37,097 bases of DNA from a virus: the IMG/VR virus record IMGVR_UViG_3300045988_111150. One strand, 5' to 3'. The position numbers and the translations under genes were made by a program. Positions 1,495 to 34,392 of this stretch are shown here, piece by piece; position 1 is the first letter of the stretch; each line of letters starts with the position of its first letter. A model generated the notes under the pieces. It worked only from the letters and a program-made list of their open reading frames with translations, did not search any database and was not told the origin of the DNA.

Positions 1495-1826
1495 GCAAAG
1501 AAGAAGTAAAGGTAGAAAAACACACAGAAACAAAAGAAGAAGCCATTAAGAACATGAGAAAAATAGTAGAGGTTGAGGAAGAAAACCACGTAGAGACAAA
1601 AGAGGAAGCAGTTAAGAGAGTAGCCGAGCCGCTTAGCGTTACTATTGAAAAAGCAAAAAAAGATATCAATACAGCGATTATTATGGCGGAAAGAAATTAC
1701 GGCTTACATTCAAGTATTACGGTGCTGATTCTTGAAAGCGTCTTAGCAAATGTACGCGCGGGAAATGCTACAGTAGCAGCTATGGAATTTGAACAATACA
1801 AAGGGGAACTGTTAAAGAATGAATAA
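1491..1826 (+). CDS. hypothetical protein in the tail fibre module (Glu/Lys-rich N-terminus)
   Basis: 111-aa ORF. Its ATGA start overlaps the upstream stop, and its own stop overlaps the start of the fibre gene, suggesting translational coupling. Confidence 0.5.
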   Translation: MSKEEVKVEKHTETKEEAIKNMRKIVEVEEENHVETKEEAVKRVAEPLSVTIEKAKKDINTAIIMAERNYGLHSSITVLILESVLANVRAGNATVAAMEFEQYKGELLKNE

Positions 1827-4053
1827 ACAGATCACACGACTTACGTTAGATGTAGGCTTAAGAGATTCCTATAAAGTTGTATTCGCAAAGATGGGCGATA
1901 CAGAACGCCGGGTAATTGCGGAAATTAAAGACAACGGAGAGGACTATAGCCTTGCTGGGGTAAATACTGTAGAAGTTCGCTGTAGAAAGGCGGACGGAAA
2001 ACAGGTTACTAAAAACGCTACGAAAGATAATAATACAATCGTAATTGACATAAGTGGGCAAATGACAACTTGCAAGGGTACAGCTATTGTAGACGTAGTG
2101 CTGTACGGAACTGACGGCGGCGTATTAAGTACAGCTAAATTCTATTTGAATGTAGACGACGGGGCGGTAAGTGAAGATGATATTAAAAGTAGCAATGAAT
2201 ACAAAAGCCTTACAGATGCATTAAGAACGGTGGGACTTGCAAAGGAAGTAGCGAATACTGCATTAAATACAGCTAATGAAGCAGTTAAAACAGCAGAATC
2301 AGCTATGAAACAGATACCGGGTTATACTTCCAGGGCAGAGACAGCGGCGAGCAAAGCGGAAGAAAATAAAACGGCAGCAGCAAATTCAGCGAGCGCGGCA
2401 GCAGATTCTAAGGCAGCCGCCGGAAAGTCCGCAACAGCGGCGGCAAATTCAGCAAGCGCAGCGTCGGAAAGTAAAACAGCAGCAGCAAATTCAGCAAGCG
2501 CGGCATCAGAAAGCAAAACAGCAGCGGCAAATTCAGCAAAAGCAGCAGAAGCGGCGAAGGTGAAGGCAGAAGACGTAGTAAAAGGGATTGCAGATACAAA
2601 AGCGGAAGCAATCGCGCAAATAGAAGCTGCCGGAGTAGAAGCTACACAAAATATTAAGGGATACACGAAGGAAGAAACAAACGCACTCTTAAGAGCTGCC
2701 GGGATTCATACCCAGGTAGGCGCGCCGATTTACGGGGTAAAAAGGGTGTGGAATACAGCAAATGTAAGTGACACCTGGGAACGTACAGACGCAAGTGTAG
2801 GCATGGAAGCAAACCCGACCATAGGGACAAAAGTAGGGAAAGACGACTTTTCTTATGTAATGCCGTGGGCGGGGATTGTATCTAAATGCTGCGACCTGGA
2901 TACAGGGGAAACAATAGCGTATATCGGAGAACCGGGGTACGACCCAACGAAGTACATGGTACTTACAGAGTATCCGGGATATTATCTCAAACGCTGGCGA
3001 GACGATACATACGAATATGTACAGATTTCCGCCGGAGCATTTGACGGAGCGGTATATATAGAGCCGTGGGAGTGGGGACGCTACCCGTCTTCACTTATGG
3101 GAAGTAAGCACGTATCCATGAGCGGAAAGCACCCGGATTGCAGAATAAATAGAGCTACGGTACGTGCACGATCAAAAGCAGCCGGAGAAGGATACTACAG
3201 CATGGATAGTACAAGCTACTGGGCGTATAGTATGCTGGTTCTTGTGAAATACGCGAGTCTTAATACTCAAGAAAAAGTATGCAAGGGCTATTACTATTTG
3301 AGATACACAGACCAGGACAAGGCTTTAGTAGCGGAACAGAGTACAAACCGTATTGTTATCGCACTTGCGACAGCAGCCAACGAATACCTGGTAGGAAATG
3401 CTGTGGAAATCGGTACAAGCCTGGGCGGAGCACAGGTAGCGAAGCAGAGACTAATTACAAGAGTGGAAGACTACAGCAACGGAAGCGTAACAGGGAAAGC
3501 AATCTATTTTGACGGCGACCCGGTAAATATTGCAGTAGGTAATATTATTAGTCATTGCGCTAATATATCGGGAACAACCGATAGCCTGGGAATGAGGGAC
3601 GGCTGCTTAGTGAATGACGGTAAGCACGCTATGTTGCTTTTAGGGCATGAGCATAACGGGCAGTATGCTTTTGTGGATAATGTGAACCGATACCAGGACA
3701 AATTATATGTATGCTACGACAACACAGCGACGAAAGATAACGTAGGAGATACAGACCCGAATTATAAGGCGTTAAGCTTCGCATTTCCTACAACGTCCGG
3801 CTGGCAGCTTTTGGAAGGATTCGACCCGGAACACCCGTTAGAAATGTGGTGTGAAAAGCTGGGCGGTTCTTCGGTTGGCAAAGGAAACGGGGCGTATTTG
3901 TGGAGTAATAACAATGCCGCCTGGTACGTCTTGTGTGTCTTCGGTAACGCGATCAACGGAGCTGGCGCGGGCTTGCCTTACGTGTACGCGAACAGCGGCA
4001 GCGGTAACGCGGACTGGGACATCGGCGGGGTGCTTCTTAAGAAGCGCCAGTAA
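1819..4053 (+). CDS. receptor-binding tail fibre protein and DGR target: BppU-like N-terminal domain, Ala-rich repeat stalk, C-terminal C-type-lectin-like variable domain
   Basis: 744-aa ORF. The N-terminus (ITRLTLDVG...VVLYG...FYLNVDDG) resembles the phage baseplate upper protein N-terminal domain. Residues ~175-250 are KTAAANSASAASES-type repeats. The last ~45 aa (AAWYVLCVFGNAINGAGAGLPYVYANSGSGNADWDIGGVLLKKRQ) are encoded by the VR. Confidence 0.85.
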   Translation: MNKQITRLTLDVGLRDSYKVVFAKMGDTERRVIAEIKDNGEDYSLAGVNTVEVRCRKADGKQVTKNATKDNNTIVIDISGQMTTCKGTAIVDVVLYGTDGGVLSTAKFYLNVDDGAVSEDDIKSSNEYKSLTDALRTVGLAKEVANTALNTANEAVKTAESAMKQIPGYTSRAETAASKAEENKTAAANSASAAADSKAAAGKSATAAANSASAASESKTAAANSASAASESKTAAANSAKAAEAAKVKAEDVVKGIADTKAEAIAQIEAAGVEATQNIKGYTKEETNALLRAAGIHTQVGAPIYGVKRVWNTANVSDTWERTDASVGMEANPTIGTKVGKDDFSYVMPWAGIVSKCCDLDTGETIAYIGEPGYDPTKYMVLTEYPGYYLKRWRDDTYEYVQISAGAFDGAVYIEPWEWGRYPSSLMGSKHVSMSGKHPDCRINRATVRARSKAAGEGYYSMDSTSYWAYSMLVLVKYASLNTQEKVCKGYYYLRYTDQDKALVAEQSTNRIVIALATAANEYLVGNAVEIGTSLGGAQVAKQRLITRVEDYSNGSVTGKAIYFDGDPVNIAVGNIISHCANISGTTDSLGMRDGCLVNDGKHAMLLLGHEHNGQYAFVDNVNRYQDKLYVCYDNTATKDNVGDTDPNYKALSFAFPTTSGWQLLEGFDPEHPLEMWCEKLGGSSVGKGNGAYLWSNNNAAWYVLCVFGNAINGAGAGLPYVYANSGSGNADWDIGGVLLKKRQ
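2368..2562 (+). repeat. imperfect in-frame tandem repeat, 42-nt (14-aa) unit KTAAANSASAA(S/D)ES, about 4.5 copies
   Basis: Read directly: aaaacagcagcagcaaattcagcaagcgcggcatcagaaagc recurs with small changes. One unit carries an extra 21-nt insertion. Confidence 0.7.
3916..4040 (+). repeat. DGR variable repeat (VR), in frame at the 3' end of the fibre gene
   Basis: 125 nt, identical to TR 4235-4359 except at VR positions 3935, 3953, 3964, 3965, 3985, 3995, 4012 and 4018. All eight are A in TR (6 A>G, 2 A>T) and all fall on codon position 1 or 2. Confidence 0.92.
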
Positions 4054-4068
4054 GACCGGGGGTGTAAC

Positions 4069-4085
4069 GGGGGCGGGCAGCCCCC
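4069..4085 (+). promoter_or_regulatory. GC hairpin downstream of VR (candidate DGR target-recognition hairpin/cruciform)
   Basis: GGGGGC (4069-4074), loop GGGCA, GCCCCC (4080-4085), 28 nt past the end of the VR. There is no counterpart after the TR. Confidence 0.5.
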
Positions 4086-4131
4086 TAATACCTAAAGATT
4101 TCCAGGAAAATGGAAGGAAAGGGGGAAAGTA

Positions 4132-4159
4132 TTGAATTTGCAAAATGAAATGATATACT
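4132..4159 (+). promoter_or_regulatory. candidate sigma70-type promoter for the TR-RT transcript
   Basis: TTGAAT (4132-4137), 16-nt spacer, TGaTATACT extended -10 (4151-4159), about 75 nt upstream of the TR. Confidence 0.4.
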
Positions 4160-4234
4160 ACCCAAAAGAAACGGCGGGAAGGAGATAGAACATGAAAGGA
4201 TAGAGAAAATACATAAAAGGGATTTAGTGTGTAA

Positions 4235-4359
4235 GCCGCCTGGTACGTCTTGTATGTCTTCGGTAACGCGAACAACGGAGCTAACGCGGGCTTGCCTTAC
4301 GTGAACGCGAACAACGGCAGCGGTAACGCGAACTGGAACATCGGCGGGGTGCTTCTTAA
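4235..4359 (+). repeat. DGR template repeat (TR), non-coding
   Basis: Invariant copy of the VR. My hand count gives 28 adenines and ten AAC triplets in register with the VR reading frame (4265, 4271, 4274, 4283, 4304, 4310, 4313, 4325, 4331, 4337). No ORF covers it. Confidence 0.92.
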
Positions 4360-4561
4360 TGCTTATAATGGAAAATATGAATTATTGCACACTATCTAAA
4401 CACGGCGCAAGCTGTGACCTTACCAGAGTAACCGACACGGCGAAGGACTGGTAAAAATAAGCGACTGGCAAGGAACTATTAGGGGAAACCCGGAAGCCGC
4501 TATTTACAGGGCGGTACGTCTTTGGACGTATTCCGAATAAGCATTTAAGAAAGGGTAGTAT
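4360..4561 (+). ncRNA. candidate DGR RNA spacer region between TR and RT
   Basis: 202 nt without an ORF between the TR end and the RT start. Contains a small hairpin TACGTC-TTTG-GACGTA (4515-4530) and a short TR-5'-like fragment. The role is inferred from the Bordetella phage BPP-1 TR-spacer RNA. Confidence 0.35.
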
Positions 4562-5833
4562 ATGGATAAGCCAGTAAATAAGAAATCAAAGTTAAAGAAA
4601 CAAGAGATACTACCTAAAAGAGTTGGTGGAATCTACGAAAAAATCTACGAATATGAAAACATTAAAACGGCGATTAAGGCAGTATGCAGTAGCCCGAACG
4701 CCACGAAGTCAAAGAAAAATGAAAAAGCAAATGCAAAACAACAGAAAGAAAAGTATTTAGGGGATATCGACAAATACACGAAAATGATACAGGCACTTTT
4801 GATAGAAGGCAGATATAAGCCGCGTAAGTTGAGAAGGAAAGAAATATACGACGGTGTGCGGCATAAAAAGCGAATGATCGCTAAGCCCTGTATGGTTGAT
4901 AAGATTGTACAACGGGCAGTATTGCAGATCATTGAGCCTATTCTGACAAGAAGGATGTATATGTATTCGTGCGCAAGTATAAAGGGAAAAGGCGGGACGT
5001 ATTGCAAAAGGAAGATTGAAAGAGCGATAGCCAGGAAGAACAGGAAAGGAAAGACGTATAAGAATGTAAAGCATACAAAGTACTGGGAAGCCTTGGATAT
5101 TAAGAAGTGCTACGACAATATTTTACATTGCTTTTTGAAGTTCCGGCTTATCAAAATGTTTAAAGACAAAAGGTTACTTGAATTACTGTTTATGTGTATA
5201 GATATTTACTGGGTAAAAGAGACAGCAGCCGGGAAAAGAGGAATACCAATAGGTACGCCGTTCGGTCACTGGTTCGCTAATATCATGCTGACACCAGTAG
5301 ACTTTGTAATAAAACATATTTTCAAGATAAAATACTATTTTAGGTACATGGACGATATGTTATTATTTAGTAGTAATAAAAAGAAGCTACGGCAGTATGT
5401 AGCCTGTATCCGTGATGCGCTATCACGAATAGGCTTACACATAAAGAGTAAATTACAAGTGCACGCGACAAATGATAAAGGGAAACTGGGAAACAGACCA
5501 ATAGACTTTATAGGCTATAGATTCTACCGGGACTGTACTACCTTACGTTCCAGTATATGCTTAAGAATAACACGAAGAATACGGAAGGTACGAAAGAAGC
5601 AGATACTTAACGGACACGATGCGAGAAGTATTATAAGCTATTATGGCTGGATAAAAAATACAGACTCTTACGGACTGAAAGTAAAGTATTTTAAGGATAC
5701 CGTAAAAAGCGCAAAGGAGAAGATAAGCAATGGAAGCGGTAAGAATCAGAGAAGGCGTAGAGACAGAAGAGGAAGTACTGACAGGTGCGGCTATAGTCGA
5801 GAGACAGGCGGGGCGTGTGCGTGTACAGCTTAA
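4562..5833 (+). CDS. DGR-type reverse transcriptase
   Basis: 423 aa. Motifs read by eye: GIYEKIYEYENIKTAIKAV; RMIAKPCMVDKIVQRAVLQIIEPIL; YSCASIKGKGGTY; ALDIKKCYDNILH; GIPIGTPFGHWFANIML; YFRYMDDMLLF (YMDD catalytic box); IDFIGYRF. Order and spacing match DGR RTs. The last ~35 aa overlap the next gene in another frame. Confidence 0.9.
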   Translation: MDKPVNKKSKLKKQEILPKRVGGIYEKIYEYENIKTAIKAVCSSPNATKSKKNEKANAKQQKEKYLGDIDKYTKMIQALLIEGRYKPRKLRRKEIYDGVRHKKRMIAKPCMVDKIVQRAVLQIIEPILTRRMYMYSCASIKGKGGTYCKRKIERAIARKNRKGKTYKNVKHTKYWEALDIKKCYDNILHCFLKFRLIKMFKDKRLLELLFMCIDIYWVKETAAGKRGIPIGTPFGHWFANIMLTPVDFVIKHIFKIKYYFRYMDDMLLFSSNKKKLRQYVACIRDALSRIGLHIKSKLQVHATNDKGKLGNRPIDFIGYRFYRDCTTLRSSICLRITRRIRKVRKKQILNGHDARSIISYYGWIKNTDSYGLKVKYFKDTVKSAKEKISNGSGKNQRRRRDRRGSTDRCGYSRETGGACACTA

Positions 5834-6113
5834 GACGGATGTAGAGACGGTAGAAGAAACGGAAGAGAAACCGAAACACTACCGTTTTACATTGATTGAG
5901 TTTTGCACCCGTGAAACTGCAAAACTGGAAGCGCGCATTAACGGAAGCCTGGCTAAATGGATTGAAGAAGCCCGGAGAATTGCAGCGGAGAAAGCAGGAA
6001 AGAAAACAGCAGAAGAAAAGTACGACGATCTCAAAGAGACAACCGACGGACTGGTAGAGACAACCGACGAGCTTGTAGAAACTATGGCGGATATCTTAGG
6101 GGGTGCTATTTAA
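5730..6113 (+). CDS. acidic hypothetical protein (127 aa)
   Basis: AAGGAG at 5714-5719 lies upstream of ATG 5730. The ORF overlaps the RT 3' end by 104 nt. Glu/Asp-rich, with repeated TTDGLVETTDELVET. Confidence 0.5.
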   Translation: MEAVRIREGVETEEEVLTGAAIVERQAGRVRVQLKTDVETVEETEEKPKHYRFTLIEFCTRETAKLEARINGSLAKWIEEARRIAAEKAGKKTAEEKYDDLKETTDGLVETTDELVETMADILGGAI

Positions 6114-9246: not shown

Positions 9247-10299
9247 CTATATCTTGTTGATTGCGTCTATTAGTTCCTCTATTTCAAAGTGAGTATATAC
9301 TATTTCGGTTACGCCTTGCCCTTTATGTCCGATTATCTTTTTTATGACCTTATCCGATACACCAGCTACGGTTAATAAGCTTACGCAAGTATGCCGGGTA
9401 TCATGCGGACGGTGCGACATTCCGACGGCATCAAGTAGCGGCTTCCAGTAAGAATCGTAATAATTACGATATTTGAAGTGCGCGCCTTCTGGTGTACTTA
9501 AAAGGTACTCACAGGAATTAAGGTTATACCAATATTCAAAGAACGGGTAAACCTTTTCTGCTATCGGTACTGTACGGATTCCGGCAGCAGTCTTAGCGGC
9601 GACAATATTAAAATGACGTTCTTCTAAATTTACATCTTCTTTTTTTAAGTCTAATAGTTCACTTATGCGGCAGCCGGAATAGATCAGCATAAGTATAACC
9701 GTATAATACGGGTTACTTTCTTTAGCGTCCCATATCCGGGAAACTTCAGACTTACTGAACGGTTCACGGTTTAGCGCGTTCGGATTTCCAGCATTTTTAA
9801 TATTTAGATATTCGACCATATTTCTTTCTTTCGGTATTATTTCATGTATTACAGCGTATTTGTACATAAGCCCCAGCATAATTTTTAATTTCTTAAGTGT
9901 AGGGGTATTCTTCCCGGATTCATCAACAACCATTTGAAGATGATCTAATTTAACATCTACGAAGCGCATTGAAGCGATTTTATCGCAGAGTTTCCAGGAA
10001 GCCTTATAACCTTTTACGTTAGATTCGCTAACTGTCGGGTAATGTTCGTCACTCCAACGTTCGTATACATCAGAAAAAGTAACTTTAGCGGCGTTCACAT
10101 CGTAAGGGTTGGCGTTAAATTCTGCCAGGGCGGTAAGCGCTTCTTTCCTGGTAGGATAATAGCCGACTGTTATATATAGCTGTTTTGCCTTCCCGGTTTT
10201 CGGGTCGATATCCCAGCCTTTTGTTTTCTTTGCTACATAGGGGTTACGGCGGTTGCCGGAGAGCTTGTAAACACTTCCGAAGCCGTTAGGTAATTTCAT
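9247..10299 (-). CDS. int: tyrosine site-specific integrase
   Basis: 350 aa. N-terminal arm-binding-like LPNGFGSVYKLSGNRRNPYVAKK. Catalytic-domain motifs CRISELLDL (Arg), HDTRHT (His-x-x-Arg), GHKG...VYTHF (His/Tyr). Confidence 0.9.
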   Translation of the reverse strand: MKLPNGFGSVYKLSGNRRNPYVAKKTKGWDIDPKTGKAKQLYITVGYYPTRKEALTALAEFNANPYDVNAAKVTFSDVYERWSDEHYPTVSESNVKGYKASWKLCDKIASMRFVDVKLDHLQMVVDESGKNTPTLKKLKIMLGLMYKYAVIHEIIPKERNMVEYLNIKNAGNPNALNREPFSKSEVSRIWDAKESNPYYTVILMLIYSGCRISELLDLKKEDVNLEERHFNIVAAKTAAGIRTVPIAEKVYPFFEYWYNLNSCEYLLSTPEGAHFKYRNYYDSYWKPLLDAVGMSHRPHDTRHTCVSLLTVAGVSDKVIKKIIGHKGQGVTEIVYTHFEIEELIDAINKI

Positions 10300-12847: not shown

Positions 12848-12921
12848 GTGCCGTTAGCTCAGTTGGTAAGAGCACCCGGCTCATAACCGGGCGGGCGTGG
12901 GTTCGAGTCCCACACGGCACA
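12848..12921 (+). tRNA. tRNA with anticodon CAT (elongator Met or, if lysidine-modified, Ile2)
   Basis: Hand-folded cloverleaf. Acceptor GTGCCGT/ACGGCAC; D arm GCTC-AGTTGGTAA-GAGC; anticodon arm CCCGG-CTCATAA-CCGGG; variable CGGGC; T arm GTGGG-TTCGAGT-CCCAC; discriminator A. CCA is not encoded. The G1-C72 pair argues against an initiator. Confidence 0.9.
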
Positions 12922-14267: not shown

Positions 14268-14707
14268 GACTGAAAATATTTTTATACATAATGGTTGTAT
14301 TGATGTTGTTAGGAATCATCGGAGCAAGCACTAAATGTAGTAAGAGAATCGCGGGAATGATCGCAGTAGTTTGTATTGCGTTACTTGCCACGATTGTTGC
14401 AAAAGAGAACCAGCCGGAAGTAACAGCAGTAGCGCCGGAAACCGGGAAGATACAGACAGAACAAGACACCTGGGGAACAATTACGGTAACAGACGATACA
14501 GGCGTAACGCGAGAGTATCAAGGCTGTATACATATTTCCGGCACTTACCCATATGAAACAACCGAGTATATGGGGTTGTGCGTGAGTATGGATAGCGCGA
14601 TTGTAACGGGCGAGTGGTCGCCAGGAATGTATAAACTTTACTACGAAAGTGAAGGTAGGTACTGGGAAGCAAAGAACGACGAGAAGGAGAATAAAACCGA
14701 TGAATAA
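14240..14707 (+). CDS. membrane protein with two N-terminal TM helices and an extracytoplasmic domain
   Basis: IFLYIMVVLMLLGIIGA and IAGMIAVVCIALLATIVA are hydrophobic helices. No catalytic motif recognised. Confidence 0.5.
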   Translation: MGKVQQRVLGLKIFLYIMVVLMLLGIIGASTKCSKRIAGMIAVVCIALLATIVAKENQPEVTAVAPETGKIQTEQDTWGTITVTDDTGVTREYQGCIHISGTYPYETTEYMGLCVSMDSAIVTGEWSPGMYKLYYESEGRYWEAKNDEKENKTDE

Positions 14708-15356
14708 CTATATAACACTGTACGGAGAACCGTTAGAGTATCCGCACCAGGTAAGCGTAGATAAGCAAGGAACAGCGTACTACGGCTTTAGCATTGCAAC
14801 AGAAAGGGTAAGTGGAATTAAGGATATTACCCAGGTGATTGTAGAAGAAGGTACGCCAGCTTTTGAAAGCCTGGTAGCAATCGACAAAAACAAAGATATT
14901 TTACAAATCAAACTTAAGGTTACTGGAAGAATCAGAACACGCAACTTAGAAGGAAAAGAGCATAGCAAGCTGCATATTTCGGTACGCGCCCAGGAGATCA
15001 CAGACGAAGAGTACACAGGAGATACAAACGGCGTAATTATGACCGGGTATGTGTGCAAAATTGGAGATATGCGGACAACGCCGCGAGGAATCCATATAAC
15101 AGATATGGTTTTAGCGTGCTGGCGAGAAGATGAAAGCGGCGTAAGCGATTATATCCCGGCGATCACATGGAACGGAACAGCAGCAAGAGCAGCAGAGAAT
15201 CTTAAAGTAGGGGACTGTATCGAGGTACAGGGACGTTTACAAAGTAGAGAGTACACAAAAGAGCTGGAACATGAAAAAACAGAAGTAAGAACGTGCTACG
15301 AGTTGAGTATTGAAAAATACGAAATGGTAGCAGAAGACTTAACGAAAGAAGCGTAA
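14700..15356 (+). CDS. OB-fold, SSB-like DNA-binding protein (putative)
   Basis: The internal start MNNYITLYG is preferred. The C-terminal ITWNGTAARAAENLKVGDCIEVQGRLQSREY resembles the SSB OB-fold signature. An N-terminal segment (KVTGRIRTRNLEGKEHSKLHISV) looks like a second OB-like unit. Confidence 0.45.
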   Translation: MNNYITLYGEPLEYPHQVSVDKQGTAYYGFSIATERVSGIKDITQVIVEEGTPAFESLVAIDKNKDILQIKLKVTGRIRTRNLEGKEHSKLHISVRAQEITDEEYTGDTNGVIMTGYVCKIGDMRTTPRGIHITDMVLACWREDESGVSDYIPAITWNGTAARAAENLKVGDCIEVQGRLQSREYTKELEHEKTEVRTCYELSIEKYEMVAEDLTKEA

Positions 15357-15575: not shown

Positions 15576-16367
15576 ATGCCATACATCATAGAGGTAGTAC
15601 AAGCGGGTAAGACTATAGAGGTAATGAAGTACTATAGCAGTAGGTACGGTAAGAAGGGAATAAAGAGGGGAAAGAGACAGAACCTTACAAAAGAAGAACA
15701 GATAAAAGTGAATAAGAGGGCAGCAGAGAAAAAGTTAAGAAGGCTGATAAATGAGAACTTCCAGGAAGGAGATACACACCTGGTACTAGATTACAGAAAG
15801 GAGAGAAGACCAGCCGGAAGAAAGCAGATGCGAGCAGATGCAGACGACTTTTTAAAAGAAATGAGAAAGCTGTACAAGCGTCATGGTATCCCGTTCAAAT
15901 ACATTCATGTAATGGAGATCGGGAAGAAAGGGGCGTTACATCATCACTTAGTTATCAATACACCAGAAGAGATAAGCCAGCAAGCTATAGTTAGATGCTG
16001 GAAGGGAAGAGGAAGAACGCACCATAACCCGCTAGATGATACAGGACAGTACGCAAAACTAGCGGCATATCTGATTAAGCAGAGTGACGGAATGTTAAGA
16101 GACCCGGAAGCATTACAAGGGAAACGCTGGAACAGTTCAAGGAACTTAAGGAAACCGAAGGTACTAAGAAAAGAACCGATAAAAGATAAAGGTTGGTATA
16201 ACCGTATCGCAAGGCTTCCGAAGAAGTTAGAACAGCAATACATACTGGACGGCGACAGCGTACAGGAAGGAATACACGAAAAGACAGGTTATACGTTCTT
16301 TACCTACACATTTGTAAAAATTAACCAAACCTGGAAGGAGACAGAATTAGAATGGGAAAAACTTTAG
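15576..16367 (+). CDS. HUH-superfamily rolling-circle replication initiator-like protein
   Basis: Motif order THLVLDY (motif I-like), ALHHHLVIN (HUH-like), QYAKLAAYLIKQ (catalytic Tyr motif III-like). Basic N-terminus. Confidence 0.55.
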   Translation: MPYIIEVVQAGKTIEVMKYYSSRYGKKGIKRGKRQNLTKEEQIKVNKRAAEKKLRRLINENFQEGDTHLVLDYRKERRPAGRKQMRADADDFLKEMRKLYKRHGIPFKYIHVMEIGKKGALHHHLVINTPEEISQQAIVRCWKGRGRTHHNPLDDTGQYAKLAAYLIKQSDGMLRDPEALQGKRWNSSRNLRKPKVLRKEPIKDKGWYNRIARLPKKLEQQYILDGDSVQEGIHEKTGYTFFTYTFVKINQTWKETELEWEKL

Positions 16368-16660: not shown

Positions 16661-16910
16661 AGCGATCTATCTTACCGGGCTTGTAGTAGCTGCTGCATTT
16701 ACGTTACTGTGGCTGCTTATAGATGATATGAGAAGAGAGATAAGAGAGGTAGAGGAAGGGTACTACAGAGAAAAGCTAGAAGGAAAAGATAAAGCAGCGC
16801 TTATATTTGCGGAAATCGGAACATCACTAACCGTAGGGGTTATGTGGTGGCTTGCGATCATAATTATTATAGGCGTAGCGATAATGATAATCACAGGAGA
16901 AGAAATATAA
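16653..16910 (+). CDS. small membrane protein (two TM helices)
   Basis: The internal ATG 16653 overlaps the upstream stop. LTGLVVAAAFTLLWLLI and VGVMWWLAIIIIIGVAIMII are hydrophobic helices. Confidence 0.5.
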   Translation: MIKAIYLTGLVVAAAFTLLWLLIDDMRREIREVEEGYYREKLEGKDKAALIFAEIGTSLTVGVMWWLAIIIIIGVAIMIITGEEI

Positions 16911-16912
16911 GC

Positions 16913-17458
16913 ATGAATATGACGGAATCAGAAGACCAGGCACAGCGAAACGTATTCGACTGGGCGAGGTGGCAAAAAGGGAAATACCCACAGCTTAAGG
17001 CTATGTACCATGCAGCAAACGAAGGAAAACGAAGCGTAAGAGCTGGAGCAGAACTTAAGCGCCAGGGAATGAAGCCAGGCGTAAGCGATATCTGTTTACC
17101 GTATGCTTCGGGAAAATACAACAACCTATATGTAGAGCTGAAAGTAGGGAATAACAAAGCATCGGATAATCAGCTTAAGTTTATAGATACAATAAACGGA
17201 ATTGGTGGAAAAGCAGTTATAGCATACGGAAGTGAAGCTGCTATAAGCGTAATAACTGCATACCTGGAAGGGGCGATAGATAGCTTAGAGATAGCAAGCG
17301 ATACATACCCGCCGGAAAAAGCAAAGATTACAGAGCGGGCGAACAAGAAGAGATTTACAGGTTTTTGCGGCGCAGATTGCAGAGAATGTAATAACAAAGG
17401 CTGCTACGGAAGAAAAGTGGACGATATGTTAAGCCCGGGACTGCTACCAGCAACGTAA
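16913..17458 (+). CDS. VRR-NUC domain nuclease with a Cys-rich C-terminal tail
   Basis: The pattern EDQAQRNVFDW...HAANEGKRS...GMKPGVSDICLP...LYVELKVG...SDNQLKFIDTINGIGGKAVIAYG matches the VRR-NUC (PD-D/ExK) layout. C-terminal CGADCRECNNKGC. Confidence 0.65.
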   Translation: MNMTESEDQAQRNVFDWARWQKGKYPQLKAMYHAANEGKRSVRAGAELKRQGMKPGVSDICLPYASGKYNNLYVELKVGNNKASDNQLKFIDTINGIGGKAVIAYGSEAAISVITAYLEGAIDSLEIASDTYPPEKAKITERANKKRFTGFCGADCRECNNKGCYGRKVDDMLSPGLLPAT

Positions 17459-17501: not shown

Positions 17502-17921
17502 ATGGCGAAGCAAGGAAATAATATGTCACACACGAAACACGGAAACAAAGCACCAGCGGCGGAGCGGGAAGCTGCCGCCGCAGAAAGGGAAGGTTTACAA
17601 ATGAAGGCGATTGAATGGTTAAGAGGAAAATTACATATTGAGCCGGACGAAAGAAAGATAGGCAAGAAATATTATGAAAAATGCGATAAGGGTACAGCTA
17701 CAGAACTGGAAGCGTCTTACTCTACATACATGATATTGAAAGACAGGGGATATGAGCCGGACGATATTTTAATATTACTGGAAGAAGATAACGGGAAGTT
17801 TACCGGGAAGAAGCTTACAGTACAGGTATACAGCGCAGAAAGAGAAATAGAAGGCTTGTTAGATGGCTACTGTGTCTTAATGGTCGAAAATATGGGCTTA
17901 GCAGCGTGGAAAGTGAAATAA
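17502..17921 (+). CDS. hypothetical protein (139 aa)
   Basis: ORF only. The start may be the downstream ATG (MSHTKHG). Confidence 0.4.
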   Translation: MAKQGNNMSHTKHGNKAPAAEREAAAAEREGLQMKAIEWLRGKLHIEPDERKIGKKYYEKCDKGTATELEASYSTYMILKDRGYEPDDILILLEEDNGKFTGKKLTVQVYSAEREIEGLLDGYCVLMVENMGLAAWKVK

Positions 17922-17941
17922 AAGAAAGTGAGGTAGAACGA

Positions 17942-18706
17942 ATGAGAACAGTAGCAGTAGTAAATTTAAAGGGCGGAGTTGGAAAGAGTACAACAGCTAT
18001 TAACATGGCTTTGATTATGAGCCAGGCACACGGAAAAAACGTATTGCTGATAGATAACGATTTCCAGGCAGCAGTTACTAAATTCTTCGGAAACCACAGT
18101 TACGATAAGCCGAGTATGGAAGATGTACTTAGAAATCCGATGCTATCAGCAGAAGAGGTAATTATACCGAGTGGGCGCTGGGGCTTAGATATTATTCCGG
18201 CAAATATGAACATGATCGCGGCAGCAGACGACCTTATAACGGATAAAGACAGCGACCAGATAGGGCGGATAAGAAACATCTTAGACCAGGTGGAAGAAGA
18301 ATACGACTACTGTATTATTGATTGCCACCCGAGCGTAGGGATAGAAGTACTTAACGCACTGGCAGCAGCAGAAGACATTATTATACCGATTAAGGCAGAC
18401 AAGAACGCTTTAGACGGAATGGAAGAGCTAGACGATATTATACAGGAAATCAGACCGTATAACGAAAAGCTGGAAAGCGTGCGCTGCCTGGTAACGATGT
18501 ATACGAAAGATATCGACGTAATAAAAGGCGAGGAAGTCTTAAGAAATAGCAAATACGACGTATTTACTACACATATCAGACATAGCAAGAAAGTAACAGC
18601 CTGGACGTATGAGAACGGGCAGAGCTTGTTAGAGACTACACCGAGAAGCGCGGCGACAAGAGATTATAAGAACCTGGTATTAGAGTACATGGGAAAGAGG
18701 ATATAA
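17942..18706 (+). CDS. parA: ParA/Soj-family partition ATPase
   Basis: MRTVAVVNLKGGVGKSTTAINMA contains the deviant Walker A, and YDYCIIDCHPS is Walker B-like. The internal start is preferred over track start 17906. Confidence 0.85.
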   Translation: MRTVAVVNLKGGVGKSTTAINMALIMSQAHGKNVLLIDNDFQAAVTKFFGNHSYDKPSMEDVLRNPMLSAEEVIIPSGRWGLDIIPANMNMIAAADDLITDKDSDQIGRIRNILDQVEEEYDYCIIDCHPSVGIEVLNALAAAEDIIIPIKADKNALDGMEELDDIIQEIRPYNEKLESVRCLVTMYTKDIDVIKGEEVLRNSKYDVFTTHIRHSKKVTAWTYENGQSLLETTPRSAATRDYKNLVLEYMGKRI

Positions 18707-30663: not shown

Positions 30664-33600
30664 ATGGCTGGTGCAAGTCTCAGAGTAGGGGCGAATACAA
30701 GCGAGTTTACCAGTCAAATGAAATCAATGCTTACGCAAATGAAGCTTGTTACCAGTGAATACAAGGTAGAAGCAGCACAGGCGAAAGCATTAGGAAATCA
30801 AACAGATTTACTTAAGGCGAAAAAGACGGAGCTTACAAGTAAGATTAAGCTGCAAACGGACGCGATCAAGCTACAGGAAACCAACTTAACAGCCCAGAAG
30901 CAGAAGCTTACAGAACTGATCGAGAAGGAAGACAAAGCAAAGCAGAAGGTAGCAGAACTTACAAAAGCCCACGAAGATAGCGTTAAGGCGACTGGAAAAG
31001 ACAGCGAGGAAAGCCAAAAACTAAATGCACAGCTAGAAGAAGCAAAAGAAGCACACGCAAAGGCTACAAATGCTGTAAAGAAACAGGAAGACGCGATAGC
31101 GAAGAATACGGTTAAACTGAATGAATCGAAAGCGGCGCTTACTGAACAGAATACAGCATTAAAAAACACAGAAGAAGAATTAACGAACGCCGGAAAAAAA
31201 TGGACTGTTTTCGGACAGGAAATACAGACGGCGGGAAGTAACATGGACGAAGCCGGGAACAAAACTTTGAGCCTGGGCGACGTTATTAAAGCTAATCTTA
31301 TTTCTTCCGCGATCATAAGCGGAGTAAAAGAACTTGCCAATGGTATAAAGGAACTTGCAAAAGGCGCGATAAGTGTAGGAATGGACTTCGAGAGCGGTAT
31401 GAGCCAGGTAGCGGCTACTATGGGTATGACTACCCAGGAAATAGCCGGGGGAAGCGAAGCTTATACAAAACTGGAAAATGCAGCAAAAGAAGCCGGAAAT
31501 ACAACACAGTTTAGCGCGACACAGGCAGCAGAAGCCCTTAACTATATGGCACTTGCCGGATACGATGCAGACAAAGCGGTAGAGACATTACCAACAGTTC
31601 TAAACCTGGCAGCAGCCGGGGGAATGGACTTAGCGACAGCTTCCGATATGGTAACGGACAGCATGAGCGCACTAGGGGACAAAGCCGGAACTACAGAAAG
31701 TTTTGTAGATAAAATGGCGAAGACCTCACAAAAGAGCAATACCAGTGTGCAGCAGTTGGGCGAAGCGCTGCTTACTGTAGGCGGAACGGCTAAGAGCTTA
31801 ACGGGCGGAGTTACCGAAGCGAATACCGTATTAGGAATATTCGCGGATAGTGGAACAAAGGGAGCGGAAGGCGGAACAGCGTTACGAAACGTTATCTTAA
31901 GCCTTACAGCACCGACAGATACAGCAAAGAAGAAAATGCAAGAATTAGGGCTTGAAGTCTTCGATGCAAACGGGAATATGCGACCGTTAAATGAGACTTT
32001 CCAAGACCTTAACGGAATCCTGGGGGATATGACCCAGGGAGAACAGACAGAAGTTTTAAATACAATCTTTAATAAAGTAGACCTTAAGAGCGTAAACGCG
32101 CTACTTGCGAACAGCGGCGAGCGGTTCAATGAGTTGAGCGGTTATATAGAAAATTCTACGGGAGCTGCCGAAAATATGGCGGCGACAATGAATGATAACT
32201 TACAGGGCAAAATTACAATATTAAAGAGTGGGCTTGAAGGACTAGGAATAGCTGCTTATGAAAAGTTCGAGACACCGTTAAAAAATGCAGTAACAAATAT
32301 TACGAACGTAATAGGAGATTTGCAAACAGATTTAACGAGCGGAGAACTAAGCGGCGCACTTGATAAGATTGCTACAGGGTTCGGAAACCTGGTAGAAAAA
32401 GCTAGTGAAATTATTGTAGCAGTATTGCCGAAAATATTAGAAGGGCTGGGCTGGATAGCAGATCATGGAGACACGATAGCAAGTATATTAGCGGCAATAG
32501 GTGCGGGATTTGCAGTATTTAAGGTAGCGTCGATAATTAACGGCGTAGTAACGGCTATACAGGGACTTACGGCAGCGGAAGTAGCTTTAAATACAATACA
32601 GAAGCTTGTAAATGTAACAATGGCTGCTAATCCGATGATGTTAATTATTACGTTGGTTGCTACACTGGTAGCGGCTATAGTCGGATTTGTAGCGACAAAT
32701 GAAAATGCGAGAACAGCGGTAGTAAATGCCTGGAACGTTGTAAAAGATACAATAGGAAAAGTAGTAGGAGAAATTGCAAAATTCTTTACAGAAACAATAC
32801 CGAACGCACTTAGTAAGGTTGTAGATTTTGTAAAAGATAACTGGCAAGATATCCTGTTATTATTGGCGAATCCATTCGCGGGAGCAGTTAAGTTACTGTA
32901 TGAGCATTGCGAAAGCTTCCGAAACATTGTAGATAATATAGCTTCATTTTTCCAGGAATTACCGGGGAAAATTTGGGACGCAATCCTGGGCGCGGTTGAG
33001 AAGATAGCAACCTGGGGCGAAAATGTAAAGACAGCGGCGACACAGGCGGCAAGTAACGCTATAACAAGCGTTATTACATTCTTCCAGGAATTACCGGGCA
33101 AGATTTGGGACGCAATCCTGGGCGCGGTTACGATTGTAACGACCTGGGGCGAAAACATGAAAACGGCAGTTGTACAGGCTGCTACAGAATTTGTAACAAA
33201 TGCAGTAACATTTTTCCAGGAATTACCGTATAAAATCGGCTATGTAATCGGTCAAGCAATCGGAAATGTAGTACAGTTCGGTATTGACCTGGTAACATGG
33301 GCGACTACAGAAATACCGAATTTTATTAACACGGTAATAACATTCCTGGTAGAGCTTCCAGGTAAGATTTGGAACGCGATAGTAAGCGCGATCACGAACG
33401 TACAGAACTGGGGACAGCAGATATACACGGAAGCAACAACGTATATACAAAATACGATAACTTCCGTAGTGGGATTCCTGGTAGAGCTTCCAGGTAAGAT
33501 TTGGAACGCGATAGTAAGTGCGATCACGAACGTACAGAACTGGGGACAACAGGTATACACACAAGCAACTAATTATATACAGAATACTATAACGACGGTC

Positions 33601-34392
33601 GTAAACTTTTTATCCCAGCTTCCAGGTAAGATTTGGAACGCAATAGTAAGCGCGATTACAAATATGGCGAACTGGGGGCAGCAGATGTTAAGCCAGGCGA
33701 GCGCGGCAGCATCGAATATTTTAAGTAATGTATATTCGACACTTTCACAGATGCCGGGCAGAGTTTGGAACGCAATACAGGGCGCTATACAATCTGTAGC
33801 AAACTGGGGAAGCGGACTACTGCAACAGGGTAGAAACGCGGCAAGTCAGTTAGTAAGTGCTGTGATTAACGGTGTAGCTTCGCTACCGTCGCAAATGGCG
33901 AGCGTAGGATACAATATCGTAACTGGCGTATGGAATGGAATATGTAACGCCGCTGGCTGGTTCAGACGACAAGTACAGAGCTTCTTTAGCGGAATCGTAG
34001 ACGGTGTAAAAAATGCGCTTGGTATTCATTCGCCGTCGAGGGTATTCCAGGACGAAATAGGTAAGTACATGGCACAAGGAGCGGGCGTAGGTTTCACAAA
34101 CGAACTTGGAAATGTCGAAGAAGACATAAATAAGAGCCTGGGAACACTTACAAAGAACGTAGCAAAGATTACACCGATAACAGAAGTTAAGCAGAGTGCG
34201 AAAGTAGTAGCACTGAACAATAGAGTAGATACTACACAATTTACGGACAATTCAGAGAAGACCGTAATAGTAGAAATTACGAATATTACAGAGCTTGACG
34301 GAAAAGAGATAGCACGAAAGACAACGAAGCGAGTAGTTAAGAACGTAACGAAAGAACAGAAAAATAAGCAGAAAGCGAAAGGGGCGGCATAA
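30664..34392 (+). CDS. tape measure protein
   Basis: 1242 aa. N-terminal coiled coil, central TMP core (GMTTQE...AEALNYMALAGY...), hydrophobic segment, and C-terminal tandem repeats. Confidence 0.9.
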   Translation: MAGASLRVGANTSEFTSQMKSMLTQMKLVTSEYKVEAAQAKALGNQTDLLKAKKTELTSKIKLQTDAIKLQETNLTAQKQKLTELIEKEDKAKQKVAELTKAHEDSVKATGKDSEESQKLNAQLEEAKEAHAKATNAVKKQEDAIAKNTVKLNESKAALTEQNTALKNTEEELTNAGKKWTVFGQEIQTAGSNMDEAGNKTLSLGDVIKANLISSAIISGVKELANGIKELAKGAISVGMDFESGMSQVAATMGMTTQEIAGGSEAYTKLENAAKEAGNTTQFSATQAAEALNYMALAGYDADKAVETLPTVLNLAAAGGMDLATASDMVTDSMSALGDKAGTTESFVDKMAKTSQKSNTSVQQLGEALLTVGGTAKSLTGGVTEANTVLGIFADSGTKGAEGGTALRNVILSLTAPTDTAKKKMQELGLEVFDANGNMRPLNETFQDLNGILGDMTQGEQTEVLNTIFNKVDLKSVNALLANSGERFNELSGYIENSTGAAENMAATMNDNLQGKITILKSGLEGLGIAAYEKFETPLKNAVTNITNVIGDLQTDLTSGELSGALDKIATGFGNLVEKASEIIVAVLPKILEGLGWIADHGDTIASILAAIGAGFAVFKVASIINGVVTAIQGLTAAEVALNTIQKLVNVTMAANPMMLIITLVATLVAAIVGFVATNENARTAVVNAWNVVKDTIGKVVGEIAKFFTETIPNALSKVVDFVKDNWQDILLLLANPFAGAVKLLYEHCESFRNIVDNIASFFQELPGKIWDAILGAVEKIATWGENVKTAATQAASNAITSVITFFQELPGKIWDAILGAVTIVTTWGENMKTAVVQAATEFVTNAVTFFQELPYKIGYVIGQAIGNVVQFGIDLVTWATTEIPNFINTVITFLVELPGKIWNAIVSAITNVQNWGQQIYTEATTYIQNTITSVVGFLVELPGKIWNAIVSAITNVQNWGQQVYTQATNYIQNTITTVVNFLSQLPGKIWNAIVSAITNMANWGQQMLSQASAAASNILSNVYSTLSQMPGRVWNAIQGAIQSVANWGSGLLQQGRNAASQLVSAVINGVASLPSQMASVGYNIVTGVWNGICNAAGWFRRQVQSFFSGIVDGVKNALGIHSPSRVFQDEIGKYMAQGAGVGFTNELGNVEEDINKSLGTLTKNVAKITPITEVKQSAKVVALNNRVDTTQFTDNSEKTVIVEITNITELDGKEIARKTTKRVVKNVTKEQKNKQKAKGAA
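32947..33900 (+). repeat. about 7 in-frame tandem repeats of 129-132 nt (43-44 aa; consensus F(F/L)xELPGKIW(D/N)AIxxAI...NWGQQ) within the tape measure gene
   Basis: Read directly. Copies starting at 33343 and 33475 are nearly identical at nucleotide level. Copies at 32950 and 33082 form a second near-identical pair. Confidence 0.8.

Follow-up and report, generated by a model that had tools for sequence, protein, structure and literature searches.

Does the region at positions 1819–5833 of the viral record IMGVR_UViG_3300045988_111150 hold a working diversity-generating retroelement (DGR), and what does this element rewrite? The whole stretch of 37,097 nt was analyzed and is called the window below. 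An earlier note, made from the letters of the window alone, had described a complete DGR that hypermutates the tip of a tail receptor-binding protein. Very probably, the locus is a functional, accessory-free DGR with the order target–template repeat–reverse transcriptase (RT), carried by a temperate phage of human-gut Lachnospiraceae. It is a textbook DGR of the kind that lacks the accessory protein Avd, with nothing beyond what DGRs are known for. New relative to the earlier note are a conserved promoter, a spacer RNA and hairpins flanking the variable repeat.

The repeat pair of the element comprises:

3916–4040, plus strand: variable repeat (VR), encoding residues 700–741 of the target protein; identified by direct-repeat search and base-by-base comparison.
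4235–4359, plus strand: template repeat (TR), non-coding; identical in the window and in the related loci L001–L010, L016 and L074, with 2 substitutions in L011–L015.

These two copies were the single long direct repeat found (125 nt, ungapped, 94% identity, spacing of 319), and their homology ended sharply on both sides. VR and TR differed at exactly 8 positions (VR 3935, 3953, 3964, 3965, 3985, 3995, 4012 and 4018). The TR base was A in 8/8 cases, and the VR base was G six times and T twice. A mismatch at a non-adenine template position, which according to the earlier note would have spoken against a DGR, did not occur in the window. For 8 mismatches placed at random, the chance of all falling on A sites is 2.6e-6 (hypergeometric, 28 A in 125). 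All 8 were located at codon position 1 or 2 of the open reading frame (ORF) 1819–4053, and as a result, TR encodes Y,N,N,N,N,N,N where VR encodes C,I,G,Y,S,D,D. The 28 adenines among the 125 nt of TR fall on codon positions 1 (13), 2 (14) and 3 (1), and TR contains ten in-frame AAC codons. Since the TR adenines occupy almost only codon positions 1 and 2, mostly in AAC, up to 15 putative surface residues can be redrawn per event without stop codons. The combinatorial space of the tip amounts to about 15^10 × 4^5, roughly 6e14 proteins. The cassette is ordered as target, 181 nt, TR, 202 nt and RT, with the RT start 203 nt past the last TR base. Thus, the repeat anatomy that had been read by hand was confirmed by the computed alignment, which supports past adenine-specific rewriting of VR from TR, i.e., the DGR interpretation of the earlier note.

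Diversification was analyzed at the DNA and at the protein level. For the DNA population test, 17 loci from public assemblies were used, of which L001–L010 encode an RT identical to that of the window and L011–L017 an RT of 88% identity. The exact RT protein occurs in 224 blocks of the collection, beside differing VRs. TR was essentially invariant over the 17 loci, and 13 distinct VRs were found. When each VR was compared with the TR of the same locus, 182 differences were counted in total; 177 of these affected TR adenines (93 A>G, 65 A>T, 19 A>C), and 24 of the 28 TR adenines varied in at least one locus. In distant relatives with about 40% RT identity, the cassette is arranged alike, and all mismatches are at A (13/13 and 6/6).

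The protein population test was a search with the C-terminal 450 aa of the fibre, which returned 844 matches, the top 120 being 96–98% identical and almost without exception singleton clusters. Among the 115 fibres that aligned end to end, 110 were unique in the last 45 aa, as compared to only 16 in the preceding 105 aa. Residues 703, 706, 710, 712, 713, 716, 721, 723, 725, 726, 730, 732 and 734 were hypervariable, and residues 728 and 735 varied weakly. High entropy was seen at exactly those residues whose TR codons carry an A in their first or second position. The amino acids observed at the ten AAC codons were the full set of 15 that NNC can encode, and none outside this set. About 46% of the AAC-codon adenines were mutated per VR, with an inferred spectrum of 58% G, 33% T and 9% C. 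In the comparison of related phages that the earlier note had proposed as a check, VR heterogeneity was massive and confined to A positions. Read from these alignments, repeated adenine-specific rewriting from an invariant template is proven at the level of the lineage.

The protein that is rewritten was characterized by profile searches and by structure prediction:

1819–4053, plus strand: target tail fibre/baseplate protein of 744 aa; Pfam BppU_N with E=2e-6, phrog_5302 "tail protein" with E=1e-25.
3121–4050, plus strand: predicted C-terminal ligand-binding domain (residues 435–744), C-type-lectin-like of the formylglycine-generating enzyme (FGE) type; from profile and AlphaFold2 (AF2)/Foldseek.

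The fibre is built from BppU_N (residues 23–138, baseplate upper protein), an Ala-rich repeat/coiled-coil part and a C-type-lectin (CLec)-type domain of ~310 aa with VR at its end, and its gene follows a Prophage_tail gene and precedes the lysis genes. The ~310-aa C-terminal domain is common to 394 representative clusters. A phmmer search of the single fibre tip against the PDB yielded nothing, and a 6-sequence profile reached only E=0.78 to TaqVP, the DGR variable protein of a Thermus aquaticus prophage. A profile of 26 diverse 50%-identity representatives matched TaqVP (5vf4) with E=4.2e-9 in three collinear stretches, the last of which aligns VR to VR; the same profile matched the VR of Mtd with E=0.056. 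The AF2 model of the tip, based on a 66-sequence alignment, had a predicted local distance difference test (pLDDT) value of 88.5 and a predicted template modeling (pTM) score of 0.85. Its best PDB match in Foldseek was again 5vf4 (E=1.7e-5, prob 1.0, TM ~0.43), followed by a phage baseplate protein and then by Mtd. The TM-score to TaqVP is only ~0.4 because the two proteins carry different inserts. Hence, the profile match and the model agree on the C-type-lectin/FGE fold for which the earlier note had proposed a check, and they support that the predicted tip is homologous to TaqVP. A role in receptor binding and in tropism switching would follow from the domain content and from the analogy to the DGR of Bordetella phage BPP-1.

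The fibre also varies outside its tip. The shaft (2347–2588) contains degenerate 42-nt tandem repeats (14-aa, Ala/Ser-rich). Homologous fibres occur in discrete lengths of 674, 695, 730, 744, 756 and 779 aa, which suggests that the repeat number of the shaft varies on top of the DGR variation of the tip. Fibres that are 96–98% identical over the 450-aa query are split into hundreds of singleton "90%-identity" clusters, and this splitting is probably due to shaft-length differences together with VR variation. Five fibre homologues (P0161, P0180, P0196, P0233 and P0239) end in ...NIGGVLLNAYNGKYELLHTI; in these, VR is joined directly to the sequence that normally follows TR, and the 319-nt interval is lost. 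Their sequences point either to a VR/TR recombination that deleted the stop codon and the hairpins or to an assembly collapse of the repeat.

The enzyme of the cassette and its motifs are:

4562–5833, plus strand: DGR reverse transcriptase, full-length ORF of 423 aa, isoelectric point (pI) 10.2; Pfam RVT_1 with E=2e-19.
5249–5269, plus strand: RT motif 4, IGTPFGH; from the translation and the clade alignment.
5345–5356, plus strand: RT motif 5, YMDD, within FRYMDDMLLF (residues 260–269).

The catalytic YxDD of motif 5 is present (FRYMDDMLLF). The protein matched phrog_1423 "reverse transcriptase" with E=6e-85, and compared with an 88%-identical homologue, its dN/dS was 0.078, i.e., it is under strong purifying selection. 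Because a single-sequence phmmer search against the PDB could not separate the Bordetella RT (bRT; E=1.6e-13) from a group II RT (E=8.5e-13), a clade profile was built from 33 members (alignment A1) and searched against the PDB RTs. It matched bRT (8ub7) over its full length with 199 bits (E=1.3e-57), the best group II intron RT with 117 bits (E=1e-32) and retron or Drt RTs with at most 56 bits.

These searches bear on the alternative that the locus is not a DGR but a duplication or gene-conversion tract next to an RT of a group II intron, a retron or a defence system (Abi/DRT). It could draw on the narrow phmmer difference, on the sub-threshold group II and DRT matches in NCBIfam and PADLOC and on the missing SQ dipeptide of motif 4 (see below). 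However, the clade profile favoured bRT by 82 bits, and the NCBIfam scores remained far under their cut-offs (group II 93.9 bits versus 300, Drt3a 61.9 versus 200, retron 32 versus 235). PADLOC likewise gave only sub-threshold RT matches to group II/DRT-type families, and neither NCBIfam nor PADLOC contains a DGR model. Rfam detected no intron RNA and no retron ncRNA in the window, its sole match being a tRNA, and sister RTs at 30–45% identity carry the canonical IGxYTSQWFAN. The strict A-to-N asymmetry, with one copy invariant and more than 100 alleles of the other, also contradicts this alternative, which is effectively refuted. By its profile scores, the RT belongs to the DGR RT clade and, as to its placement, bRT is favoured over group II, retron and Drt RTs.

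DGRs depend on elements in cis, and candidates for these were found around VR and between VR and RT:

4022–4040, plus strand: 3' constant segment of VR, TCGGCGGGGTGCTTCTTAA, resembling an initiation of mutagenic homing (IMH) site; G/C-rich and A-free save for its last two bases, which never vary.
4029–4048, plus strand: 8-bp inverted repeat with a TTAA loop, spanning the end of the VR/TR homology; DNA fold, putative function.
4069–4085, plus strand: GC hairpin GGGGGC-GGGCA-GCCCCC, 29 nt past VR; DNA fold.
4132–4159, plus strand: putative sigma-70-like promoter, TTGAAT-16 nt-TATACT with an upstream TG (extended -10), ~75 nt upstream of TR.
4360–4561, plus strand: structured spacer RNA between TR and RT; RNAalifold, 5 lineages.
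4401–4416 (GNRA loop), 4496–4515 and 4516–4529, plus strand: spacer hairpins; RNAalifold.
4353–4363 with 4540–4551, plus strand: long-range helix of the TR 3' end, closing just upstream of the RT ribosome-binding site.

By analogy with BPP-1 (PMC5758913, PMC3240598), the segment TCGGCGGGGTGCTTCTTAA would be the IMH. The right arm of the inverted repeat 4029–4048 exists only beside VR and is absent beside TR; in L067/L070 it co-varies with the shared left arm (GGTGCT/AGCGCC versus GGCGTT/AACGCC; alignment A3). In the hairpin 4069–4085, the stem was invariant and the loop variable in L011, L067, L070 and L071. A hairpin of the form G5Y-loop5-RC5 also follows VR in L018 and L021, the RTs of which are only ~40% identical. 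The hairpin 4069–4085 is a candidate target-recognition hairpin or cruciform and/or the terminator of the fibre gene. GC-rich hairpins 4–34 bp after phage VRs were described by Guo et al. 2011 (PMC3240598). Together with the A-free, G/C-rich 3' segment 4022–4038, the VR-only hairpins have the appearance of DGR cis elements, with a geometry (6–8 bp stem, 4–5 nt loop, not GRNA) that departs from the BPP-1 consensus (PMC3240598). Both hexamers of the promoter 4132–4159 were invariant in five lineages while the flanking intergenic DNA varied, and this promoter probably drives a transcript of TR, spacer and RT.

The spacer fold contained 54 pairs, with 98% of cells paired and 7 pairs showing compensatory changes (RNAalifold, 5 lineages). 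In slid controls, in which the partners were moved by 1–3 columns, 0–2 compensatory pairs were counted. Two compensatory pairs lie in the helix 4353–4363/4540–4551. An alignment of the spacer with those of relatives sharing 40% RT identity showed blocks of conservation, but no structure common to all could be derived reliably. In BPP-1, a duplex of the TR 3' end with the spacer places the priming adenosine (bioRxiv 10.1101/2023.10.23.563531). By analogy, the helix 4353–4363/4540–4551 could set cDNA initiation near 4352, which would explain why A4358 and A4359 never vary.

Several observations weigh against a functional DGR in this genome. First, 5 of the 182 VR differences in the 17 loci were not at adenines, two of these five being found in L016. 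Second, the evidence for diversification spans metagenomes, i.e., it describes the lineage and not turnover within this one genome. Third, some close relatives with inactivated RTs still carry A-only VR differences. Fourth, the near-universal SQ of motif 4 ([I/V/L]GxxxSQ) reads GH in the window RT. Fifth, no Avd homologue was found in the VR–TR interval, in the TR–RT interval or in any other ORF of the genome, and Avd is essential for bRT, the N-terminal subdomain of which it braces (bioRxiv 10.1101/2023.10.23.563531). Sixth, the duplex energy of the TR 3' end with the spacer was no better than with shuffled spacers (RNAduplex). The duplex was, for this reason, discarded as energetically special, leaving covariation as its support.

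L016 (VR 185–309, TR 506–630) is of mixed type. Its RT and VR are L011-type, its TR is window-type (C and G), and its VR has T at both sites where the L011-type TR has T. This mixture suggests lineage recombination or a metagenomic assembly chimera.

If the element were an inactive relic in this genome, VR would have been diversified in an ancestor and retrohoming lost since then. Turnover is not demonstrable from a single assembly, and relatives in which RT is deleted after YMDD or fused to other genes keep A-only VR/TR differences, so that a diversified VR alone is no proof of current activity. There is also a precedent, since the DiGReF survey lists a DGR with a truncated RT in Ruminococcus gnavus ATCC 29149 (PMC3521204). 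On the other hand, the window RT is full length with intact catalytic motifs and a dN/dS typical of constraint (0.078), and the same exact RT stands in the 224 collection blocks beside different VRs. TR, the promoter, the helices of the spacer and the hairpins beside VR are intact as well, and the window VR has accumulated zero non-A mismatches. A relic is, therefore, very improbable.

Damaged versions of the cassette were found in the collection. In L074 (3001–3819; a cluster of n=114 member sequences), RT has an internal deletion right after YMDD, and VR differs from TR at 11 positions, all of them A. L069 (3001–4764), L072 and L073 were left out of the comparison as RT fusion or deletion derivatives. 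In such contigs, the 3' half of RT is fused to tail-chaperone or capsid-protease regions, i.e., these are large deletion derivatives.

With regard to the RT, the earlier note had spoken of DGR-type motifs. YMDD and the I-G of motif 4 fit this description, whereas GH stands in place of the SQ dipeptide. IGTPFGHWFAN is common to the window RT and its four closest relatives (P0002–P0005, 75–88% identical, alignment A1), and these GH-type RTs also bear several basic insertions. Among the 28 more distant clade members in the alignment, 23 have SQ, two SH, two CQ and one SA. In the cryo-EM structure of bRT, Gln187, the Q of SQ, touches the base of the incoming deoxynucleoside triphosphate (dNTP) together with R74 and I181 (bioRxiv 10.1101/2023.10.23.563531). 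According to a proposal of Schillinger et al., adenine mutagenesis rests on SQ (PMC3521204). Handa et al. reported that bRT Q187P retains normal A-misincorporation and that R74 and I181 are modulators (PMC7826257), i.e., the SQ signature is diagnostic and not functionally required. The residues that correspond to R74 and I181 of bRT are conserved in the clade of the window RT. Adenine-specific diversification without SQ, with R74 and I181 kept, thus appears as a natural confirmation that SQ is dispensable, which is interesting but not surprising.

With regard to Avd, apart from frames overlapping the repeats, no ORF of at least 50 aa was found in 4054–4561. No ORF of the genome matched the Avd family in Pfam (E<=0.01), and for the neighbouring ORFs there was no Avd match in NCBIfam, PHROG or PADLOC either. 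The relatives, including L018–L022 at ~40% RT identity, likewise lacked Avd. To our knowledge, the Avd-requiring Bordetella DGR is the only DGR that has been dissected biochemically. Of 372 DGRs studied by Wu et al., 74% had avd; an accessory-free "Architecture A" accounted for 29%, one whole RT lineage was without avd, and no remote avd was detected in genomes with Avd-less DGRs (PMC5758913). Avd is a basic four-helix-bundle protein of about 110–130 aa; a gene for it next to TR/RT, as in the canonical BPP-1-type Architecture B (avd-TR-RT), was not found here. By its gene layout, the element corresponds to Architecture A1 (TR-RT with an adjacent target and without avd, HRDC, MSL or CH1; PMC5758913), and the searches revealed none of the accessory families in it. 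It was filed under Architecture A and not B because it has no Avd gene, and for the same reason the word "complete" of the earlier note stands for an Avd-less TR-RT architecture but not for one with its accessory protein.

Directly downstream of RT lies a further gene:

5817–6113, plus strand: conserved acidic ORF of 98 aa (ORF98), overlapping the RT stop by 17 nt; a neighbour, not a demonstrated DGR component.

ORF98 bears on the explanation that the cassette is BPP-1-like and needs an unrecognized protein cofactor, either a divergent Avd analogue such as ORF98, which is translationally coupled to RT, or a host protein; the cassette would then not be a genuine two-component system of RT and RNA. 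This would be in line with Avd being essential for bRT (bioRxiv 10.1101/2023.10.23.563531) and with the poor conservation of avd genes (PMC5758913). ORF98 was called in all close relatives, where it overlaps the RT stop, and it is 56% identical where RT is ~80% identical; its C-terminus TT(D/N)ELVE(T/L)MAD(I/V)LGGAI is invariant. However, ORF98 is acidic (pI 4.8), whereas the mean pI of Avd is 9.5 (PMC5758913). The AF2 model predicted from its sequence alone has low confidence (pTM 0.29) and shows a pair of long helices instead of a four-helix bundle, and ORF98 had no family match in Pfam, NCBIfam, PHROG or PADLOC. In L018–L022, the order is fibre–TR–RT followed by a tail-assembly-chaperone gene (PF16778) at the ORF98 position; BLASTP gave no significant match of ORF98 to the PF16778 proteins of L018 and L021, and in L071 no gene was called at this position. 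PF16778 in the distant relatives makes a role in virion assembly more likely, and ORF98 is more likely tied to the fibre than to the DGR. The absence of remote avd genes from genomes with Avd-less DGRs (Wu et al.; PMC5758913) also disfavours a hidden cofactor, and we regard this explanation as unlikely.

As a tentative possibility, the RT lineage may represent a minimal two-component DGR, in which the spacer RNA and the basic insertions of RT position the priming duplex in place of Avd and, jointly with this, the active site works with the dNTP-contacting Gln of SQ replaced by His.

The functional, accessory-free DGR that we favour would operate in four steps. First, the promoter 4132–4159 would transcribe TR, the ~200-nt structured spacer and the RT gene. 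Second, the basic RT would bind this RNA and copy C, G and U of TR faithfully, but incorporate any nucleotide opposite A; substitutions at TR adenines from A to G, T and C are the outcome that fits this step. Third, cDNA synthesis would be primed in cis from the spacer after its pairing with the TR 3' end, as suggested by the BPP-1 analogy and by limited covariation. Fourth, the mutagenized cDNA would replace VR at the 3' end of the fibre gene, guided, as their conservation suggests, by the A-free, G/C-rich 3' homology and by the VR-only hairpins. The likely benefit would be altered receptor recognition and host range.

Compared with known systems, the DGR of BPP-1 (mtd-avd-TR-brt) is similar in several respects. 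Both diversify a tail-fibre tip that is encoded by the 3' end of its gene, on a scaffold of the FGE-type C-type-lectin kind with a related VR consensus (...NxNIGxR/G..LL). Both have an AAC-rich TR with adenine-specific mutagenesis, and both RTs belong to the same clade, with YMDD and the equivalents of Arg74 and Ile181 conserved. A G/C-rich 3' segment, a GC hairpin downstream of VR and a structured spacer RNA downstream of TR are also shared. Unlike BPP-1, the cassette of the window has no avd, and 181 nt of non-coding DNA separate the target stop codon from TR. Motif 4 has GH instead of SQ, and the window RT exceeds bRT in length by ~95 aa and bears basic insertions as well as a basic tail at its C-terminus. 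The spacer measures ~200 nt as compared to ~140 nt, and the hairpin has a 6-bp stem with a 5-nt loop instead of an 8-bp stem with GAAA. In its N-terminal part, the target has a BppU-like region and a coiled coil, whereas Mtd has a beta-prism and a sandwich, and the host is a Gram-positive gut anaerobe.

The closest architectural counterparts are the Architecture A1 DGRs, including the avd-less Lineage 3 (Wu et al. 2018, NAR 46:11; PMC5758913), which share the TR-RT core, the adjacent upstream target and the lack of an accessory gene. Cassettes of this type account for 29% of the curated set, and many of them come from human-microbiome Firmicutes and Bacteroidetes and from prophages (PMC5758913). 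Lineage 3A is restricted to Bacteroides (PMC5758913), whereas the element studied here occurs in Lachnospiraceae phages. DGR clades of gut Firmicutes phages have C-Lec tail-protein targets and show activity in metagenomes (Roux et al. 2021, PMC8144416; bioRxiv 10.64898/2026.01.26.701711), and the cassette of the window resembles these gut Firmicutes (pro)phage DGRs in its C-Lec tail target and its metagenomic diversification. The window RT is at most 35–39% identical to any RT of the phage collection (GenBank phage records, INPHARED). TaqVP (PDB 5VF4; PMC6328139) is the best solved relative by profile and fold, and the VRs align, but the two are 13% identical in sequence, and TaqVP consists of a single domain, whereas the domain studied here caps a 744-aa fibre.

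The genome around the cassette was also inspected. The window ends (1–31 and 37067–37097) overlap by 31 nt, which indicates a circular, complete assembly of ~37,066 bp. The Prophage_tail (Tal-like) gene of ~1101 aa runs from 35103 across the junction to 1342, and the ORF 47–1342 (431 aa) is its C-terminal part. Terminase, portal, head and Dit/Tal-like proteins are encoded, and GC content is ~41%. By size and position, the 1242-aa ORF 30664–34392 is probably the tape-measure protein. A lysis module of holin/XhlA–amidase–glucosaminidase follows the fibre and the DGR. The 350-aa reverse-strand ORF 9247–10299 is probably an integrase, as judged by its position, and a helix-turn-helix (HTH) repressor, a single-stranded DNA-binding protein (SSB) and a Rep protein are encoded. 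A phage tRNA-Met (anticodon CAT; 12848–12921, plus strand) lies in the early/lysogeny region. The ORFs 15576–16367, 14649–15356, 16844–17458 and 17906–18706 form the replication module, with Pfam matches to a REP_ORF2-G2P-type rolling-circle-like initiator, SSB and a VRR-NUC nuclease. ORF 17906–18706 is read as a ParA-like ATPase from the Walker-type KGGVGKST motif in its translation. For a temperate, siphovirus-like phage of 37 kb, this combination of initiator, SSB, VRR-NUC and ParA-like proteins is unusual.

The closest large terminase subunit was that of Clostridium phage PhiS63 (56%), and the closest RTs in isolated phages were those of Butyrivibrio phages Arawn/Idris (38.5%) and Lactobacillus phage LBR48 (34.5%). 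A megablast search with 1819–5833 gave no nucleotide match in the phage collection (GenBank phage records, INPHARED). The GTDB representative genomes gave no nucleotide match either, and an RT scan of these returned only relatives of <=32% identity and no host. Host-flank proteins of related prophages were identical to proteins of Mediterraneibacter (Ruminococcus) gnavus, to Faecalimonas- and Coprococcus-labelled proteins and to Blautia proteins. The right flanks of L001, L003 and L011 (~12–13 kb) encode an M. gnavus LysR, a Faecalimonas/Coprococcus Rrf2 regulator and a Blautia HTH protein, and variable cargo after the lysin in related prophages includes the ToxN toxin, RhuM, Fic and ParAB. 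Identical or near-identical RTs beside genes of different Lachnospiraceae could reflect a host range spanning genera, the labels being taken from metagenome-assembled genomes. Gene content and flanks identify the virus as a 37-kb temperate siphovirus-like phage that resides as a prophage in human-gut Lachnospiraceae.

For annotation, these results mean that the fibre tip is to be treated as hypervariable, since it distorts strain comparison, host prediction and clustering at 90% identity, which calls for caution with catalogues. For DGR biology, the locus provides a well-sampled cassette without Avd and SQ that shows clean adenine-specific diversification, in line with bRT Q187P, and it is a convenient candidate model for Avd-independent priming and homing. 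In ecological terms, it adds one more abundant Lachnospiraceae prophage with a DGR on a predicted receptor-binding protein, as known for gut phages. If it is true that RT and the TR-spacer RNA suffice for adenine-specific mutagenesis, this would amount to an Avd-independent mechanism and would offer a more compact chassis for directed evolution.

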